This document shows positions 4,279-12,365 of a stretch of DNA of 64,000 nucleotides, piece after piece. The notes beneath the pieces are model-generated. The model searched no databases. It saw only the letters and a list, made by a program, of their open reading frames with translations, and had not been told where the DNA came from. The stretch is taken from the sequence record OQ703618.1, one strand, 5' to 3'. Numbering within the stretch: position 1 is the stretch's first letter; each line of letters opens with the position of its first letter. The translations under genes were made by a program, and so were the position numbers. The DNA is from Escherichia phage GADS24.

Positions 4279-4766
4279 CTCAAATTCCTGCATTCGGTAA
4301 TAAAACGTTCAACTTCATTATTCTTGGCTTTTATCTTGTCTTTACGTTCCTGTAAACTACTTTTAATAAGACTAATAATGATGCCTATAGTACCTCCACC
4401 AATAATACCACCAACAACACTTATGATACTAGATGCTAATAAGATAGCGATAATATCAACAAAACCGAAAGAACTCACCTTAGTACTAAAAAACCATACC
4501 GACGGTACAAATATAATCCATCCTGTTATCCATTGGCACTTATTGAAAAACTTTTCAAGCTCAGCTTGAGTTGTTCGTATTACTTCATCGATAGGTTGAT
4601 ATCCATTAATGTATCTGTTCACGATAATACCTGCTGGCTGGTCGATTTTAAATTCTTGGCAAATACGTTTCACTAAGTAGGATGGACATCCTGTCCAATC
4701 TACTGAATAGTATGAAATACCTTCATTGCCATCGTCTATATTAGACCAATATGTTTTGTTAATCAT
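4275..4766 (-). CDS. hypothetical membrane protein with C-terminal FIxECR tail
   Basis: Hydrophobic, Gly-rich C-terminal half; ends ...ERFITECRNLR; start overlaps upstream stop (TAATG). Confidence 0.5.
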   Translation of the reverse strand: MINKTYWSNIDDGNEGISYYSVDWTGCPSYLVKRICQEFKIDQPAGIIVNRYINGYQPIDEVIRTTQAELEKFFNKCQWITGWIIFVPSVWFFSTKVSSFGFVDIIAILLASSIISVVGGIIGGGTIGIIISLIKSSLQERKDKIKAKNNEVERFITECRNLR

Positions 4767-5452
4767 TACCAGCCTTCCATAGGGAATTCCAGATAAACTT
4801 GAGCATTGACACGAATTTCATTGGTAATCTTTTTAACTCGGTCTGTATTACGAGATACACGTCCGAACCAACGCCACCCATTACTAATTGCACGAGAACC
4901 AGTGTGCCATGTTTGCCAATCAAACTGAAGAAGAGTACGATCTGGAGCTTCCCATTTCTCTAGTTCACCTTTTTCAATTTTTTCGAGGACTTCTTTGTGC
5001 CACTGACGATAGATAAGTTCGCCATCAGGAATCTGACTGAACTCTGCAGTTCCTGTTGCAAAATGAGTAGGACACACGTCAGCGTTAACAAGACCAAGAA
5101 TATGTTCAGAATGGTAACGAGGGTTATCATAATCAGGTTGTCCTGCAGTAATAAAGTGTTGACCAACCGGAATATCCGGTCGTGGTACATCATCATGGTG
5201 ATAACCTGGGATAGCAGGGTACCAACCAGGCATCAGCATGTGGACTCGTGAATCAAATACAACCTGGTCGGTGTTCCAATCATCTGGCAAGTTCATGATG
5301 AAGCTGCGAGTAATAGGACCACCATTATTATAAGCAAATTCTAAACTACAGTTGAAGAACATAGGCTCGTTTTTAATCTGGTCATTTTTAATCGCGTGAG
5401 CAAAACCACCTACTGCACGAGCTTGACTATTAAACACTTTAGAACTATTCAT
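4766..5452 (-). CDS. hypothetical protein, His/Asp-rich (possible metal-binding)
   Basis: 228-aa ORF containing GYHHDD...H...H; GAGG SD. Confidence 0.5.
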   Translation of the reverse strand: MNSSKVFNSQARAVGGFAHAIKNDQIKNEPMFFNCSLEFAYNNGGPITRSFIMNLPDDWNTDQVVFDSRVHMLMPGWYPAIPGYHHDDVPRPDIPVGQHFITAGQPDYDNPRYHSEHILGLVNADVCPTHFATGTAEFSQIPDGELIYRQWHKEVLEKIEKGELEKWEAPDRTLLQFDWQTWHTGSRAISNGWRWFGRVSRNTDRVKKITNEIRVNAQVYLEFPMEGW

Positions 5453-5453
5453 A

Positions 5454-5759
5454 TTATTTTCCTCGACATTCTTTAATGAAATTTTCTAGATTGGTAGATT
5501 CAATAGCTTTTTTACGAGCTTCTGCGTGTTCTTCTTCGGACAATTTACGTTTATAATTGACCCAGACATTATGGTCGAAACCAGACGTGGCATATAATAA
5601 CAAAGCTCCGACGAATAATAAAAACGGTGATAAGAATACAAAACCAGGAACACCATCCATATCGTAAGCCTTTTGTAATACTGCAACAGAAAGAGATGCG
5701 TAAAAAGGTGATGCAAGTATTGTTAAAAGACCGATTCGATTGGTTTCTGTTAATTTCAT
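5454..5759 (-). CDS. hypothetical membrane protein with C-terminal ENFIKECR tail
   Basis: Two predicted TM segments; ends ...LENFIKECRGK; CATGAGGAGAATATT-ATG RBS; promoter/stem-loop cassette upstream. Confidence 0.5.
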   Translation of the reverse strand: MKLTETNRIGLLTILASPFYASLSVAVLQKAYDMDGVPGFVFLSPFLLFVGALLLYATSGFDHNVWVNYKRKLSEEEHAEARKKAIESTNLENFIKECRGK

Positions 5760-5829: not shown

Positions 5830-6786
5830 TTATTTGAAAGGTTTTACCATATGGAAATTTTGTTTGAAACGTTTGACGTAATCGTCATGTCCTAAGCTTT
5901 GGTACATACTTACTACTTTGCTGTAGTTTTCCCAGGCATACTCACGGAACCAGCCGGAGGTTATGCTTGTGCAGACTTTTTCTAATGCCATCATAAAACT
6001 GGCTTCAGGGTTAATTTTAAAGTCATTAGGAATCTGAGAACGTTCTAATGCTAGTACACATGATTCTTCATATACACCGGCCAATTTGACCATTTCTGGT
6101 AATGATTCGAACTTCTCGCGTGAGGTCATGACTTCAGAACCGTCTTTCATATAAAATGTATACGCTGGCCGGTCTGTTAGTGCAATGGCTTCATGAATAG
6201 TATCATGGTCATATGTATAGATGTCATCTTTAAAGAACGCACTTTTAGAAGTGTCAAGAACTGGGTGAGCATAGTTCAAGGTTTCTTTCTGGCGTTTCAG
6301 CATAATTTCAGTAAGTTCATCGTTCAGTGTAACACCTTTACCACGAAGATACTGAATATGGTTCATAGTCTTTAAAAAGAATGGATTATTTTTCTTGAAA
6401 CGATGAGACATCTTAATTGCAAGACATATCTCAGGAGTTGCCCAATAAAACCCGGTCAAACGATCTTTAGTCAAATTTTTCTTGGCGTATTTTAAAAGGT
6501 CATAAGAAGACGTGAAATCTTCAGGAGTGAGTTCACCTACTAATTCGCGGACATTAGTGATTGCCGGAACAATATATGCTTCAAAATGAGTTTCGCGTCC
6601 ATTATGGAAGCATTTGAAAACTTGGACATCAGGGTTATCTTGATGAACATATACACCCATCATTTGATTTTTGAATGCATTCCAAGAACCTTGGTCTGCA
6701 ATAAAGTCCCAGTCACTATTTTTGATAGCGTTAGAATCAATAAGACCATGATAGTGAAGTGCACGAGAACCAATAACTAACATCAT
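5830..6786 (-). CDS. hypothetical protein with nucleotidyltransferase-fold-like N-terminus
   Basis: 318 aa; N-terminus LVIGSRALHYHGLIDSNAIKNSDWDFIAD resembles the hG[GS]...[DE]h[DE]h pol-beta NTase signature; GAGGAAAATATT-ATG RBS. Confidence 0.5.
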   Translation of the reverse strand: MMLVIGSRALHYHGLIDSNAIKNSDWDFIADQGSWNAFKNQMMGVYVHQDNPDVQVFKCFHNGRETHFEAYIVPAITNVRELVGELTPEDFTSSYDLLKYAKKNLTKDRLTGFYWATPEICLAIKMSHRFKKNNPFFLKTMNHIQYLRGKGVTLNDELTEIMLKRQKETLNYAHPVLDTSKSAFFKDDIYTYDHDTIHEAIALTDRPAYTFYMKDGSEVMTSREKFESLPEMVKLAGVYEESCVLALERSQIPNDFKINPEASFMMALEKVCTSITSGWFREYAWENYSKVVSMYQSLGHDDYVKRFKQNFHMVKPFK

Positions 6787-6814
6787 AATATTTTCCTCGG
6801 ATTAATTCATTAAC

Positions 6815-7054
6815 TTAAATTTCACGACATGCGATATTATATTCATCCCAGAGGTCATCATGTGAAGCCTCTACCAATGGAACGATTGTACCATTTATGT
6901 CTTCATTATAAGGGCAAATTGTGCAGTGTGCATCTTCAAATCGGATGCCTTTGTGTTCAGATTTTTTATAACGCATATCGAATATCTTTGCAAACTTTTC
7001 ACGAGTAATGGTTTTACCAACCACTTTAGTTCCTATACTTTCATAATAAATCAT
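6815..7054 (-). CDS. hypothetical protein
   Basis: ORF track 6815..7066; start likely at MIYY ATG with GGAG SD. Confidence 0.4.
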   Translation of the reverse strand: MIYYESIGTKVVGKTITREKFAKIFDMRYKKSEHKGIRFEDAHCTICPYNEDINGTIVPLVEASHDDLWDEYNIACREI

Positions 7055-7066
7055 TGTGGACTCCAT

Positions 7067-7116
7067 TTAATTTGATAGGACTACTATAACATAGCCCTAT
7101 CTTGTTGTAAACTGTT
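7067..7116 (-). promoter_or_regulatory. PeSL-like early promoter/stem-loop cassette
   Basis: TGATAGGACTACTATAACATAG core shared with cassette at 5781; GTTTAC (rc 7107-7112); imperfect stem TAGGACTA/TAGCCCTA. Confidence 0.5.
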
Positions 7117-7314
7117 TTAGCAAGAATAACTAGACGATACCCAGCCTTGAACAGTGATACTATTGTTGGATAATGAGATCGCGTTCTGGAGATTCAGACC
7201 TGCGTTATCTTCAATCCATAATGTAACTTCTTCGCGTTCTTCTGTTGCAATTTGGAACAGGTTTTCCAGAGCAGCTACTGCCGTACGTACAGCACAATCT
7301 AATTCACGAGACAT
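7117..7314 (-). CDS. small protein, GW[VI][SA]SS..C paralogue family member
   Basis: Ends ...QGWVSSSYSC; similar to the next two ORFs. Confidence 0.45.
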   Translation of the reverse strand: MSRELDCAVRTAVAALENLFQIATEEREEVTLWIEDNAGLNLQNAISLSNNSITVQGWVSSSYSC

Positions 7315-7323
7315 ATGATTTCC

Positions 7324-7596
7324 TTAGCAAGTGTGAGAAGATGCAATCCAACCACCAGTTTCGAGGCTCAGGTTGTAGTCGTATTGGTAAACGTCGGCCC
7401 ATTCAGCATAGCCGTTTTTTGTACAACGTTCAAGATCGGCTTTAAGCTGTCCGGGTGAATGATAAGTTCCACCCATACCATAAGCTGGATACAAGTCGAA
7501 TGTTGTGTTTTGTTTATCAGCGATTTCTTTGGCAGCCTCAATAGCTGCATAGATTTTTGCTACAGCTTCAGCCAGTTCGGTTTGTTCTTTAGACAT
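7324..7596 (-). CDS. small protein, GW[VI][SA]SS..C paralogue family member
   Basis: Ends ...GGWIASSHTC; junction TGCTAAGGAAATCATATG. Confidence 0.5.
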   Translation of the reverse strand: MSKEQTELAEAVAKIYAAIEAAKEIADKQNTTFDLYPAYGMGGTYHSPGQLKADLERCTKNGYAEWADVYQYDYNLSLETGGWIASSHTC

Positions 7597-7605
7597 AATG
7601 ATTCC

Positions 7606-7911
7606 TTAGCACAAAGCAGAAGACGAAACCCAAGCACCTTCAGTAATAACGTAACCATTACCTTCACGCTTAACATCGCCACCATTATTTTCAATTTCAT
7701 TTTTCATCCACTGGGATACGATTTCACCCTTAGGATAATAAGTACGACCGCTACCATAATCACCTACAGAAAATGATACGGCATATTGGTCTGCGATCTT
7801 TGTTGCTTCTTCTTCGATACGTTCAGCTTGATTCAGAAGTTTATAAATTGCATCTGAAGCGGATTTGGCATCGTTAAACTCTGGTACTTTAATTTCAATA
7901 ATCTTACTCAT
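7606..7911 (-). CDS. small protein, GW[VI][SA]SS..C paralogue family member
   Basis: Ends ...GAWVSSSALC; start overlaps upstream stop (ATGA). Confidence 0.5.
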   Translation of the reverse strand: MSKIIEIKVPEFNDAKSASDAIYKLLNQAERIEEEATKIADQYAVSFSVGDYGSGRTYYPKGEIVSQWMKNEIENNGGDVKREGNGYVITEGAWVSSSALC

Positions 7912-8267
7912 TTTCTACATTCCTTAATAAAGTTTTCGATTGTTTCATTTTCACGTTTAGCTAAAAGTTCATTATAACTAACCATTTGAGAAGCGTAAAC
8001 CTTTTTATTTTTCTTGTTATGGTTTATAAAATCGTAGTAAAAATAGACTACAGTACAAAATGATGCGATGGATGCAAAGGCTTGGGTATACCGTAAGTCC
8101 TGCCATTGGTCTGTGAATCCACCAGTGTTCCCTATAAATCCTAACACAACGCCGTCAATAAGAAATCCAACTAATCCAAAGGCAAATCCCATGCCAATAC
8201 TCATAATAAAAATTAGAATGTTCTCACCAAGAGAAGGCCGTACGGTTAAGAGTTGAGGCTTTTGCAT
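7908..8267 (-). CDS. hypothetical membrane protein with C-terminal ENFIKECR tail
   Basis: Hydrophobic N-terminal half; ends ...IENFIKECRK. Confidence 0.5.
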   Translation of the reverse strand: MQKPQLLTVRPSLGENILIFIMSIGMGFAFGLVGFLIDGVVLGFIGNTGGFTDQWQDLRYTQAFASIASFCTVVYFYYDFINHNKKNKKVYASQMVSYNELLAKRENETIENFIKECRK

Positions 8268-8641
8268 CTTATTTCCTTAACGAATTCCATAGCTTCTTCG
8301 TATTCATACTTTTTAACAGCTTCATTATACTGAGCTTGGGCTTTTGCGCACTGAACTTTCCATTCTCTTAATCTGGCTCTGTGATGTCGTCCTTGGTACC
8401 AATATCCCACCCAGTTAATAGGCATTAATAAAAATGGTACAATAAACGACCCGGGTATAATAAGTAAAAACACTGCATCAGACGATATAACTCCACTAGA
8501 ATCTAAAACAGCTCCTATAATCATAAAGATTAAAAATGCTAAAGCTAAAATAGGGCCAAACAACACTTCATTAGGAATTAATTTACGTTTGTATTCGTAT
8601 GCCCAGGGCTTAATTGGCATGTACAGGGTTGGCTTTGACAT
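8246..8641 (-). CDS. hypothetical membrane protein
   Basis: ORF track 8246..8671; start moved to ATG 8639-8641 (MSKPTLY) with GGAATGTAGAGAAT SD region; hydrophobic core; ends ...EFVKEIRCKSLNS. Confidence 0.45.
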   Translation of the reverse strand: MSKPTLYMPIKPWAYEYKRKLIPNEVLFGPILALAFLIFMIIGAVLDSSGVISSDAVFLLIIPGSFIVPFLLMPINWVGYWYQGRHHRARLREWKVQCAKAQAQYNEAVKKYEYEEAMEFVKEIRCKSLNS

Positions 8642-9215
8642 ATTCTCTACATTCCATAATAAATTGCTCAAGGATTAAATTGTTAGTGAAATTAGGACTA
8701 ACAACCATGGTTTCATAAAGCGCATCAATAGCACTTAAAGCATCAACTCTCTTAAGCAAAGGCTTGCCTTCATACATAGTTTCAGAATCGACGATTAATG
8801 TAAAGTAATATTTTTTATTATCGACTAGAACTTCAGTATCGATATAAAACATGTTAGACCTTAAAAGCTTATCTCTAAAGCCTATGTAATCATCTGAACG
8901 TTCGCTGATATATTCCCATTCAGTGTTTAAACAACAAACAGACCATGTAGGAGCAACGAAATCAGTAAATCTAATATCATGGTCTGCAACTAGTTTAGCA
9001 ATAGCTCCGATATCATGAATCATAATACCTGGGGCTAATAAAGATTTTCGGTTATTTGCATATTCAGTTGTCTCATAAGAAGACGACCAGTACCATTTAC
9101 GTCCAGTTGCAACATATCGTAATGAATCAACTAAAGACGTAGGTGGATTTACCTTATTTCGGAACTCTTCGAACATTGAGTCAATATCATTATTTTGGTT
9201 TCGCATGTTAACTCC
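8610..9215 (-). CDS. hypothetical protein
   Basis: ORF track 8610..9227; start moved to ATG 9213-9215 with AAGGAG SD; C-terminal region contains EQFIMECR. Confidence 0.5.
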   Translation of the reverse strand, partial: GVNMRNQNNDIDSMFEEFRNKVNPPTSLVDSLRYVATGRKWYWSSSYETTEYANNRKSLLAPGIMIHDIGAIAKLVADHDIRFTDFVAPTWSVCCLNTEWEYISERSDDYIGFRDKLLRSNMFYIDTEVLVDNKKYYFTLIVDSETMYEGKPLLKRVDALSAIDALYETMVVSPNFTNNLILEQFIMECREYVKANPVHAN

Positions 9216-9228
9216 TTTATTATCCAAA

Positions 9229-12210: not shown

Positions 12211-12287
<77 letters not shown>

Positions 12288-12290
12288 GAT

Positions 12291-12365
12291 TGGTGACCCT
12301 GGCTGGTTTCGATCCAGCTACCTATCAGTTATGAGCTGACAGCTCTCCCATTGAGCTACAGGGCC
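12291..12365 (-). tRNA. tRNA with CAT anticodon (Met, or Ile if lysidine-modified)
   Basis: Hand-folded 75 nt: acceptor GGCCCTG/CAGGGTC, D-arm GCTC-AATGGGA-GAGC, anticodon stem GTCAG/CTGAT with loop CT-CAT-AA, T-arm GCTGG-ATCGAAA-CCAGC, encoded ACCA. Confidence 0.8.

Follow-up and report, generated by a model that had tools for sequence, protein, structure and literature searches.

Three small adjacent genes in the genome of Escherichia phage GADS24, a Mosigvirus (an RB69-like T4-type phage), encode proteins that end in nearly the same residues, which raises the question of whether they are true copies of one another and what such a set of genes might do for the phage. A sequence-only reading of this DNA had proposed that they are tandem paralogues sharing a C-terminal motif, with similar helical N-terminal halves, Gly/Tyr-rich middles and conservation at the protein level, and that they are typical of phage host-interaction genes. 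We analyzed the 64-kb stretch of DNA containing them (64,000 nucleotides, sequence record OQ703618.1, hereafter the window), together with homologous loci in other phages.

Three adjacent genes with a common C-terminal tail

In order to verify the observation, we first re-read the three open reading frames, which we refer to as g3, g2 and g1 in the order of their transcription. Their coordinates, lengths and C-terminal sequences (GAWVSSSALC, GGWIASSHTC and QGWVSSSYSC, respectively) were exactly as had been described, and the observation therefore holds. Of 915 stop-to-stop segments of at least 30 aa in the window, only these three end in the motif, and they are adjacent. The region 6800-8300 is 99.1% identical to phage JN02 and 95-99% identical to more than 130 other genomes, and in annotated relatives all three genes are labelled as hypothetical proteins. 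By contrast, T4 has e.2 directly beside e.3 and gave no hit to any profile used here. The block is therefore an insertion relative to T4.

Table 1. Features of the locus, with positions in the window.
Position	Strand	Feature	Description
7971..7999	-	Promoter-like site	Inside e.3, upstream of g3; consensus match only; a middle promoter is annotated at the equivalent place in phage SA79RD
7606..7911	-	g3	101 aa, pI 4.7; RB69ORF139c+138c (split in RB69); phrog_899 (E = 1.8e-22); long form with N-terminal helix, DYGSGRTYYP loop and tail AWVSSSALC-COOH; its ATG overlaps the stop codon of e.3
7609..7632	-	g3 tail codons	W-V-S-S-S-A-L-C
7597..7605	-	g3-g2 spacer	9 nt; with the g3 stop codon reads TAAGGAATCATT before the ATG
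7324..7596	-	g2	90 aa, pI 4.7; RB69ORF137c; phrog_899 (E = 1.9e-18); long form with helix, AYGMGGTYH loop and tail GWIASSHTC-COOH
7327..7350	-	g2 tail codons	Equivalent to those of g3
7315..7323	-	g2-g1 spacer	9 nt; reads TAAGGAAATCAT
7117..7314	-	g1	65 aa, pI 4.1; RB69ORF136c; phrog_4882; short form with conserved helix MSRELDCAVRTA.AALENLFQ, no YGxGG loop and tail GWVSSSYSC-COOH
7120..7143	-	g1 tail codons	Equivalent to those of g3
7083..7111	-	Promoter-like site	TTTACA-17-TATAGT, T4 early type, just after g1; consensus match only; a terminator is annotated at the equivalent place in SA79RD; would separately drive ORF135c and the partner gene
6815..7066	-	RB69ORF135c	83 aa; phrog_3723; lies between g1 and the partner gene
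5830..6786	-	Partner gene	318 aa; RB69ORF134c; phrog_2141; DUF7277 (residues 2-101; Pol-beta nucleotidyltransferase-like pattern G6-S7, D25-x-D27, E69) and DUF7275 (residues 120-305; many invariant His, Asp, Glu, Lys and Arg residues)
12211-12365		tRNA genes	

To determine whether the resemblance extends beyond the tail, we compared the three proteins with each other. BLASTP aligned g2 and g3 over 73 residues (29% identity, E = 4e-6), and the two share a helix, a YGxGxTYY loop and the tail, such that their similarity spans most of the protein. For g1, the significant BLASTP similarity covers only the last 16-39 residues (E = 4e-4 and 0.011). Moreover, a hidden Markov model (HMM) of the family scored g3 at E = 2.3e-24 and g2 at E = 2.9e-21, but g1 only at E = 0.1. 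Nevertheless, profile-profile comparison of the g1 family with the main family gave 84% probability and E = 7e-6 with a colinear alignment (helix to helix, VTLWIE to VSFSVG, tail to tail), g1-type genes are embedded within arrays of the family in other T4-like phages, and short, loop-less forms in Pseudomonas and other phages are hit directly by the family HMM. The loop is therefore not universal, and the description of Gly/Tyr-rich middles holds only for g2 and g3. We regard the paralogy of g2 and g3 as established and that of g1 as very likely.

We next considered whether the shared tail could be a by-product of overlapping ribosome-binding sequence, which, together with similarity confined to the last ten residues, was the condition under which the original observation was to have been abandoned. 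The neighboring membrane-protein genes do show a C-terminal motif that contains a Shine-Dalgarno sequence. However, the Shine-Dalgarno TAAGGA of g2 and g1 starts at the preceding stop codon and is not inside the coding sequence, the tail codons differ between copies (TCG TCT AGT / GCA TCT TCT / TCG TCT TCT), and the motif is conserved in more than 130 distant homologues with unrelated downstream DNA. Although the tail dominates the similarity of g1, it is not driven by the ribosome-binding site, and the refuting condition does not hold. Apart from the short length of g1, nothing else suggested that the genes are artefactual, and their annotation and conservation in more than 130 closely related genomes, together with the size and confidently predicted fold of the family, effectively exclude chance as an explanation.

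To define the family, we carried out a profile search of 1.84 billion representative proteins, which returned 171 clusters at 50% identity (E <= 1e-3), almost all of 60-120 aa. Of 144 members, 131 end exactly in Cys and 136 fit W-x-[SATPG]-S-[STN]-x-x-C, with W at position -8, S at -5 and -4 and C at -1, and the median pI is 4.5. In 142 aligned sequences W, S and C are invariant, and A40, Y52, G53, G55, Y58 and S98 are at least 90% conserved. A subfamily carries the motif twice (...DWLNSSCYGE...IWYPSSC). An AlphaFold2 model of g3 built with this alignment was confident (pLDDT 95.2, pTM 0.81) and predicts a long helix (residues 15-43) packed on a small sheet, with the tail forming the last strand and a short helix. 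Foldseek searches of the PDB with this model gave nothing at E <= 0.001, and searches of BFVD returned only uncharacterised family members. Searches of Pfam, NCBIfam, PADLOC models and PDB sequences gave no meaningful match; weak XkdF and gp32 hits for g3 fell below the cut-offs, and N-terminally extended family members gave no informative Pfam hits. We found no paper that mentions the family, and the accessory-gene study of Silas et al. does not cover these genes.

A conserved partner gene downstream of the small genes

The sequence-only reading treated the small genes as stand-alone. To explore their context, we inspected annotated loci in four unrelated phage lineages (the window, Karamvirus myPSH1140, Pseudomonas Otagovirus PN09 and the rV5-like phage phAPEC8) and found that, in each, a gene encoding about 315 aa lies just downstream of the small genes. 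These four proteins are 47-68% identical and are DUF7277+DUF7275 proteins of phrog_2141. In the window, this partner gene, whose product matches DUF7277, DUF7275 and phrog_2141 over its full length, begins 330 bp downstream of g1, separated from it by a promoter- and terminator-like region and ORF135c.

To test how general this linkage is, we used the partner protein to retrieve 80 viral loci covering T4-like phages of many genera, rV5-like phages, Otagovirus, 350-390 kb jumbo phages and others. The family HMM hit 75 of the 80 loci, with every hit on the strand of the partner gene and nearly all within 2.5 kb upstream. Adding the tail pattern brought this to 79 of 80, with a median gap of 353 bp and one small gene in 11 loci, two in 27, three in 14, four in 5, five in 18 and six in 4. 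In the reverse direction, we looked up ten distant small proteins, and all eight contigs that were long enough carry the DUF7277/DUF7275 gene 0-3 genes downstream. All-vs-all clustering of open reading frames in 84 loci found only these two families shared across lineages. ORF135c has homologues in only 11 of the other 83 loci compared, is restricted to certain lineages and is probably not a core part of the module.

Consistent with this linkage, tblastn record counts by host genus nearly coincide for the partner gene and g3 (Aeromonas 59 and 59, Shigella 18 and 18, Enterobacter 36 and 34, Klebsiella 35 and 34, Escherichia 259 and 252). Across 185,579 species genomes the partner gene occurs three times, always on MAG contigs, and two of these have small genes upstream. 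The module is thus phage-restricted. While the partner protein is 40-75% identical across unrelated phages, the small proteins are only 22-60% identical to g3. Together, these results show a near-obligate association of the two families. However, distant DUF7275 homologues in Gordonia, Streptomyces and roseophage genomes have no detectable tail-bearing neighbor. A partial exception is Brevibacillus phage Sundance, in which an acidic 93-aa protein with YSSSYY repeats lies directly upstream of the DUF7275 homologue.

To better characterize the partner protein, we examined its conserved residues. The N-domain has hhhhGS-x-A, then D-h-D-h, then a conserved h-E-h, with G6, S7, D25 and D27 conserved in 44 of 44 sequences and E/D69 in 41 of 44. 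This corresponds to the Pol-beta nucleotidyltransferase signature, although the GS-to-DxD spacing of 17 residues is slightly longer than the classical 9-13. The C-domain carries many invariant residues, rich in metal-binding and basic types (K125, H128, K139, R165, H174, D193, H194, D195, H198, E240, E241, E248, R249, C272 and R281), as is typical of a catalytic or substrate-binding domain. Beyond this pattern, support is thin. No nucleotidyltransferase Pfam model matched apart from one weak DUF6036 hit (E = 0.053) in 1 of 44 sequences, there was no PDB sequence match, and a structure prediction without an alignment gave a pLDDT of only 37. Depositors labelled one homologue a "putative nucleotidyltransferase". 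The enzyme class is therefore a pattern-level inference.

Possible roles of the module

What our analysis shows is that the small genes are anciently diverged members of a phage-specific family of small acidic proteins, with a predicted alpha/beta fold, defined by an N-terminal amphipathic helix and the extreme C-terminal tail W-x-[SA]-S-S-x-x-Cys-COOH, and that this family forms a conserved module with one copy of a two-domain DUF7277+DUF7275 protein, preceded on the same strand by 1-6 diversified tail-bearing genes. That the large protein is an enzyme of the Pol-beta nucleotidyltransferase type, that the small proteins engage it through the Ser/Ser/Cys tail, and everything concerning mechanism are inferred. 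One slowly evolving enzyme is paired with several fast-evolving partners, what the partners share is a tail of invariant nucleophiles (Ser, Ser, Cys) that must be at the very C-terminus, and a subfamily carries the motif twice, features that point to direct engagement of the tail. We tentatively favor the reading that the small proteins are protein substrates, such that the enzyme would covalently modify the tail (by nucleotidylylation or chemistry that follows from it) and turn a set of differently shaped small proteins into active effectors early in infection. There is no direct evidence of modification or of physical interaction, the AlphaFold2 model packs the tail on the domain rather than leaving a free peptide, and the homologues lacking tail-bearing neighbors imply that the enzyme can work without these proteins, which favors an auxiliary over an exclusive-substrate role. 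In the window, the promoter- and terminator-like region and ORF135c that separate g1 from the partner gene also count against this reading. The nearest alternative is that the small proteins act as exchangeable specificity or regulatory subunits docking by the same tail. In either case, the module would be an accessory cassette, most likely used for host takeover or counter-defence and possibly linked to RNA-damage repair.

The main rival, which we consider possible but less likely, is that the large protein is an RlaP-like nucleotidyltransferase acting on damaged RNA or tRNA ends, with the small proteins as auxiliary factors (regulators, nucleic-acid mimics, specificity adaptors or inhibitors of host RNases) rather than substrates. 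RlaP (PF10127) proteins, which include T4 NrdC.11 (PMC12776372, PMC7824862), are likewise about 320 aa, have an N-terminal nucleotidyltransferase-type domain followed by a second domain (PMC12776372) and are frequent in large phages, and in some lineages both RlaP and the DUF7275 gene occur beside RNA ligase or phosphoesterase genes. In one lineage (loci L107 and L108), three small genes are followed by DUF7275, a calcineurin-type phosphoesterase and RlaP, and in locus L099 a small gene overlaps the end of an RlaP gene. Moreover, distant DUF7275 genes lie next to an RNA ligase (TunaTartare), near RNA ligase 2 plus a metallophosphoesterase (DSS3_PM1) or before a tRNA array (Aphelion), the module of T4-like phages lies in the e-to-tRNA region, and the actinophage homologues lack small partners, so that the enzyme would have an activity of its own. 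However, we detected no homology to RlaP with Pfam (no PF10127 hit) or with hhalign against the RlaP of L099 (probability 0.2%), 26 of 28 RlaP loci have no small genes, and RNA-repair neighbors are seen in only a few lineages; RlaP as a general partner of the small proteins was rejected on the locus counts and the lack of hhalign similarity. This reading also does not explain the Ser-Ser-...-Cys-COOH tail or the 1-6 paralogues per enzyme.

It seems unlikely that the small proteins are stand-alone counter-defence binders, each inhibiting or sequestering a different host factor or acting as a small-molecule sponge or DNA mimic, with a structural or ligand-binding tail and an enzyme linked only by shared regulation. 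Their size, acidity and position among early-transcribed genes in a hyperplastic accessory region would fit, subtypes are kept as separate orthologous groups across genera, which suggests distinct targets, and one family member lies next to a gene with a precomputed Acb2/Tad1-hairpin hit. However, no match to PADLOC models, to Pfam Acb2, Tad or other families, or to solved structures was found, and co-regulation alone hardly explains near-obligate same-strand adjacency to one enzyme across lineages that share no other neighbor. Even less likely is an inhibitor or antitoxin-like role, in which the small proteins would hold the enzyme inactive, for example through ligation of its catalytic metal by the terminal Cys thiolate and carboxylate, and would be released or degraded on a cue. 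A strictly C-terminal Cys is a plausible metal ligand, the C-domain has an invariant His/Asp/Glu cluster, and pairs of a Pol-beta nucleotidyltransferase and a small partner exist as toxin-antitoxin systems (MNT-HEPN, AbiE). However, 1-6 diverged paralogues per enzyme, each kept as its own orthologous group, is not the pattern of an antitoxin, no HEPN, AbiEi or AbiEii (DUF1814) signature was found in Pfam or PADLOC searches, no R-x4-H motif is among the invariant positions of the small proteins, and a lytic phage has no obvious need for addiction. Overall, the interpretation given in the sequence-only reading is partly supported. Tandem, protein-level diversified paralogy is supported and is much older and wider than could be seen from this DNA, with orthologous subtypes conserved across many T4-like genera and in unrelated myoviruses, whereas host interaction remains a guess with which the early accessory location is compatible.

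Comparison with known systems

The closest database entries, phrog_899, phrog_4882, phrog_2141 and DUF7277/DUF7275, are catalogue entries marked as of unknown function, and none records the tail motif, the relation between the two small-protein families or their linkage to the large protein; we found no paper that mentions them. Pol-beta nucleotidyltransferases that modify a small partner protein (MntA-HepT, GlnD-PII) provide the functional analogy behind our favored reading, as here too a gene with the nucleotidyltransferase pattern is linked to small proteins with invariant hydroxyl or thiol residues. We found no sequence or fold similarity to them, no HEPN RxxxxH motif and no PII fold, and the module has several diversified partners per enzyme, is restricted to virulent phages and has its candidate site in an extreme C-terminal Ser/Cys tail rather than a loop Tyr. 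RiPP precursors with a C-terminal Cys (AviCys lanthipeptides such as epidermin) likewise involve several precursor-like paralogues beside a single enzyme and S-x-x-C-COOH spacing. However, the proteins described here are 65-110 aa with a confidently predicted compact domain that includes the tail, no LanB, LanM, LanC or LanD/HFCD-type genes were seen nearby, and the SSC variants do not fit the ring spacing. Small acidic counter-defence proteins (Ocr, Arn, Acb2, Tad1 and Tad2) share the size, acidity and early accessory position, but no sequence, profile or fold match was found, and those proteins are not tied to a partner enzyme.

A more speculative and unlikely possibility is that the module is a new protein-maturation system of virulent phages, in which a Pol-beta-type nucleotidyltransferase would activate a tail serine of folded small proteins by O-nucleotidylylation and the C-terminal cysteine would then react with it, for example to give a thioether (lanthionine- or AviCys-like) ring or a Cys-linked adduct, producing a panel of chemically armed effectors. 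A related possibility is that the terminal Cys is a persulfide or acyl carrier working with the enzyme on RNA.

The module cannot be assigned to any characterised kind of system, which does not mean that a new mechanism has been shown. The gene for the partner enzyme is detectable in 733 of about 50,700 deposited phage genomes, including many therapeutic-candidate T4-like, rV5-like and jumbo phages of Escherichia, Klebsiella, Enterobacter, Acinetobacter, Aeromonas, Pseudomonas and Vibrio, yet neither component has a name, a structure or a paper. For annotation, these results provide a rule, in that a small ORF ending in WxSSSxxC upstream of DUF7275 belongs to one module, which merges phrog_899, phrog_4882 and a double-motif subfamily. 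A Ser-Ser-...-Cys-COOH tail on 1-6 diversified proteins tied to one enzyme could reveal a new protein modification or a new way for phages to equip one enzyme with interchangeable subunits.

C-terminal motifs and the g3 reading frame

Four neighbouring genes (an e.2-like ORF, e.3, e.4 and e.5), of which three clearly encode predicted membrane proteins, share a C-terminal motif (...ENFIKECRGK, ...ENFIKECRK, ...EFVKEIRCK... and ...EQFIMECREY...). In e.3, the codons for I-K-E (ATT AAG GAA) contain the Shine-Dalgarno sequence of g3, the 101-aa member of the small protein family, whose ATG overlaps the e.3 stop codon. In this case, overlap with a ribosome-binding site may really shape a protein C-terminus. 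We also found that, in the RB69 reference genome (NC_004928), the g3 orthologue is split into ORF138c (33 aa) and ORF139c (71 aa). The split is a frameshift or a sequencing error. Other Mosigviruses have the intact 101-aa gene.

Depositor annotations are inconsistent for e.4 (window 8246-8671 and records JK36, JK42, JK45 and F27) and for homologues of the gene at 5830-6786. The predicted e.4 membrane protein is called "sulfurtransferase" in some records, and homologues of the partner enzyme are variously called "putative antibiotic resistance protein", "prohead assembly scaffold protein", "biotin operon repressor" or "putative nucleotidyltransferase".

Coordinates of the genes and loci considered here (window positions unless another locus is named)
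Feature	Position	Strand
e.2-like ORF	5454-5759	-
Partner enzyme gene	5830-6786	
e.3	7908-8267	-
e.4	8246-8671	-
e.5	8610-9227	-
tRNA genes	12211-12365	-
Split g3 orthologue, RB69 (equivalent to window 7606-7911)	4735-5041	
93-aa gene, Brevibacillus phage Sundance	3258-3539	
Double-motif gene, locus L003	5294-5527	
Double-motif gene, locus L005	4698-4952	
118-aa gene, locus L100	692-1048	
Small genes, enzyme, phosphoesterase and RlaP, loci L107 and L108	1-3984	
Small gene overlapping RlaP, locus L099	94-1352	

Variants of the tail motif

A further subfamily of about 75 aa, found in loci L003 and L005 and with homologues in 33 loci, carries the motif twice, once internally and once at the end (...DWLNSSCYGEE...DGxIWYPSSC). 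This subtype is lacking in the window's phage. In Brevibacillus phage Sundance, the gene directly upstream of the DUF7275 homologue encodes a 93-aa acidic protein that ends EEEEYSSSYYEEEEYSSSYYEED, with aromatic-SSS-aromatic repeats and no terminal Cys. This protein may be an analogue of the WxSSSxxC tail in a Gram-positive phage.

Neighbouring genes and a possible link to RNA repair

In locus L100, a 118-aa gene lies between a family member and the DUF7275 gene. This gene has a precomputed Pfam hit to Acb2_Tad1_hairpin, an anti-CBASS/anti-Thoeris sponge family, although our own scan at E <= 0.01 did not reproduce the hit. In the window, only two tRNA genes (Arg-TCT and Met/Ile2-CAT) occupy the position of the eight-gene tRNA cluster of T4. 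Finally, in one uncultured phage lineage (loci L107 and L108), three small genes are followed by DUF7277/DUF7275, then by a calcineurin-type phosphoesterase, and then by an RlaP nucleotidyltransferase. In locus L099, a small gene overlaps the end of an RlaP gene. These arrangements hint at a link to RNA repair.
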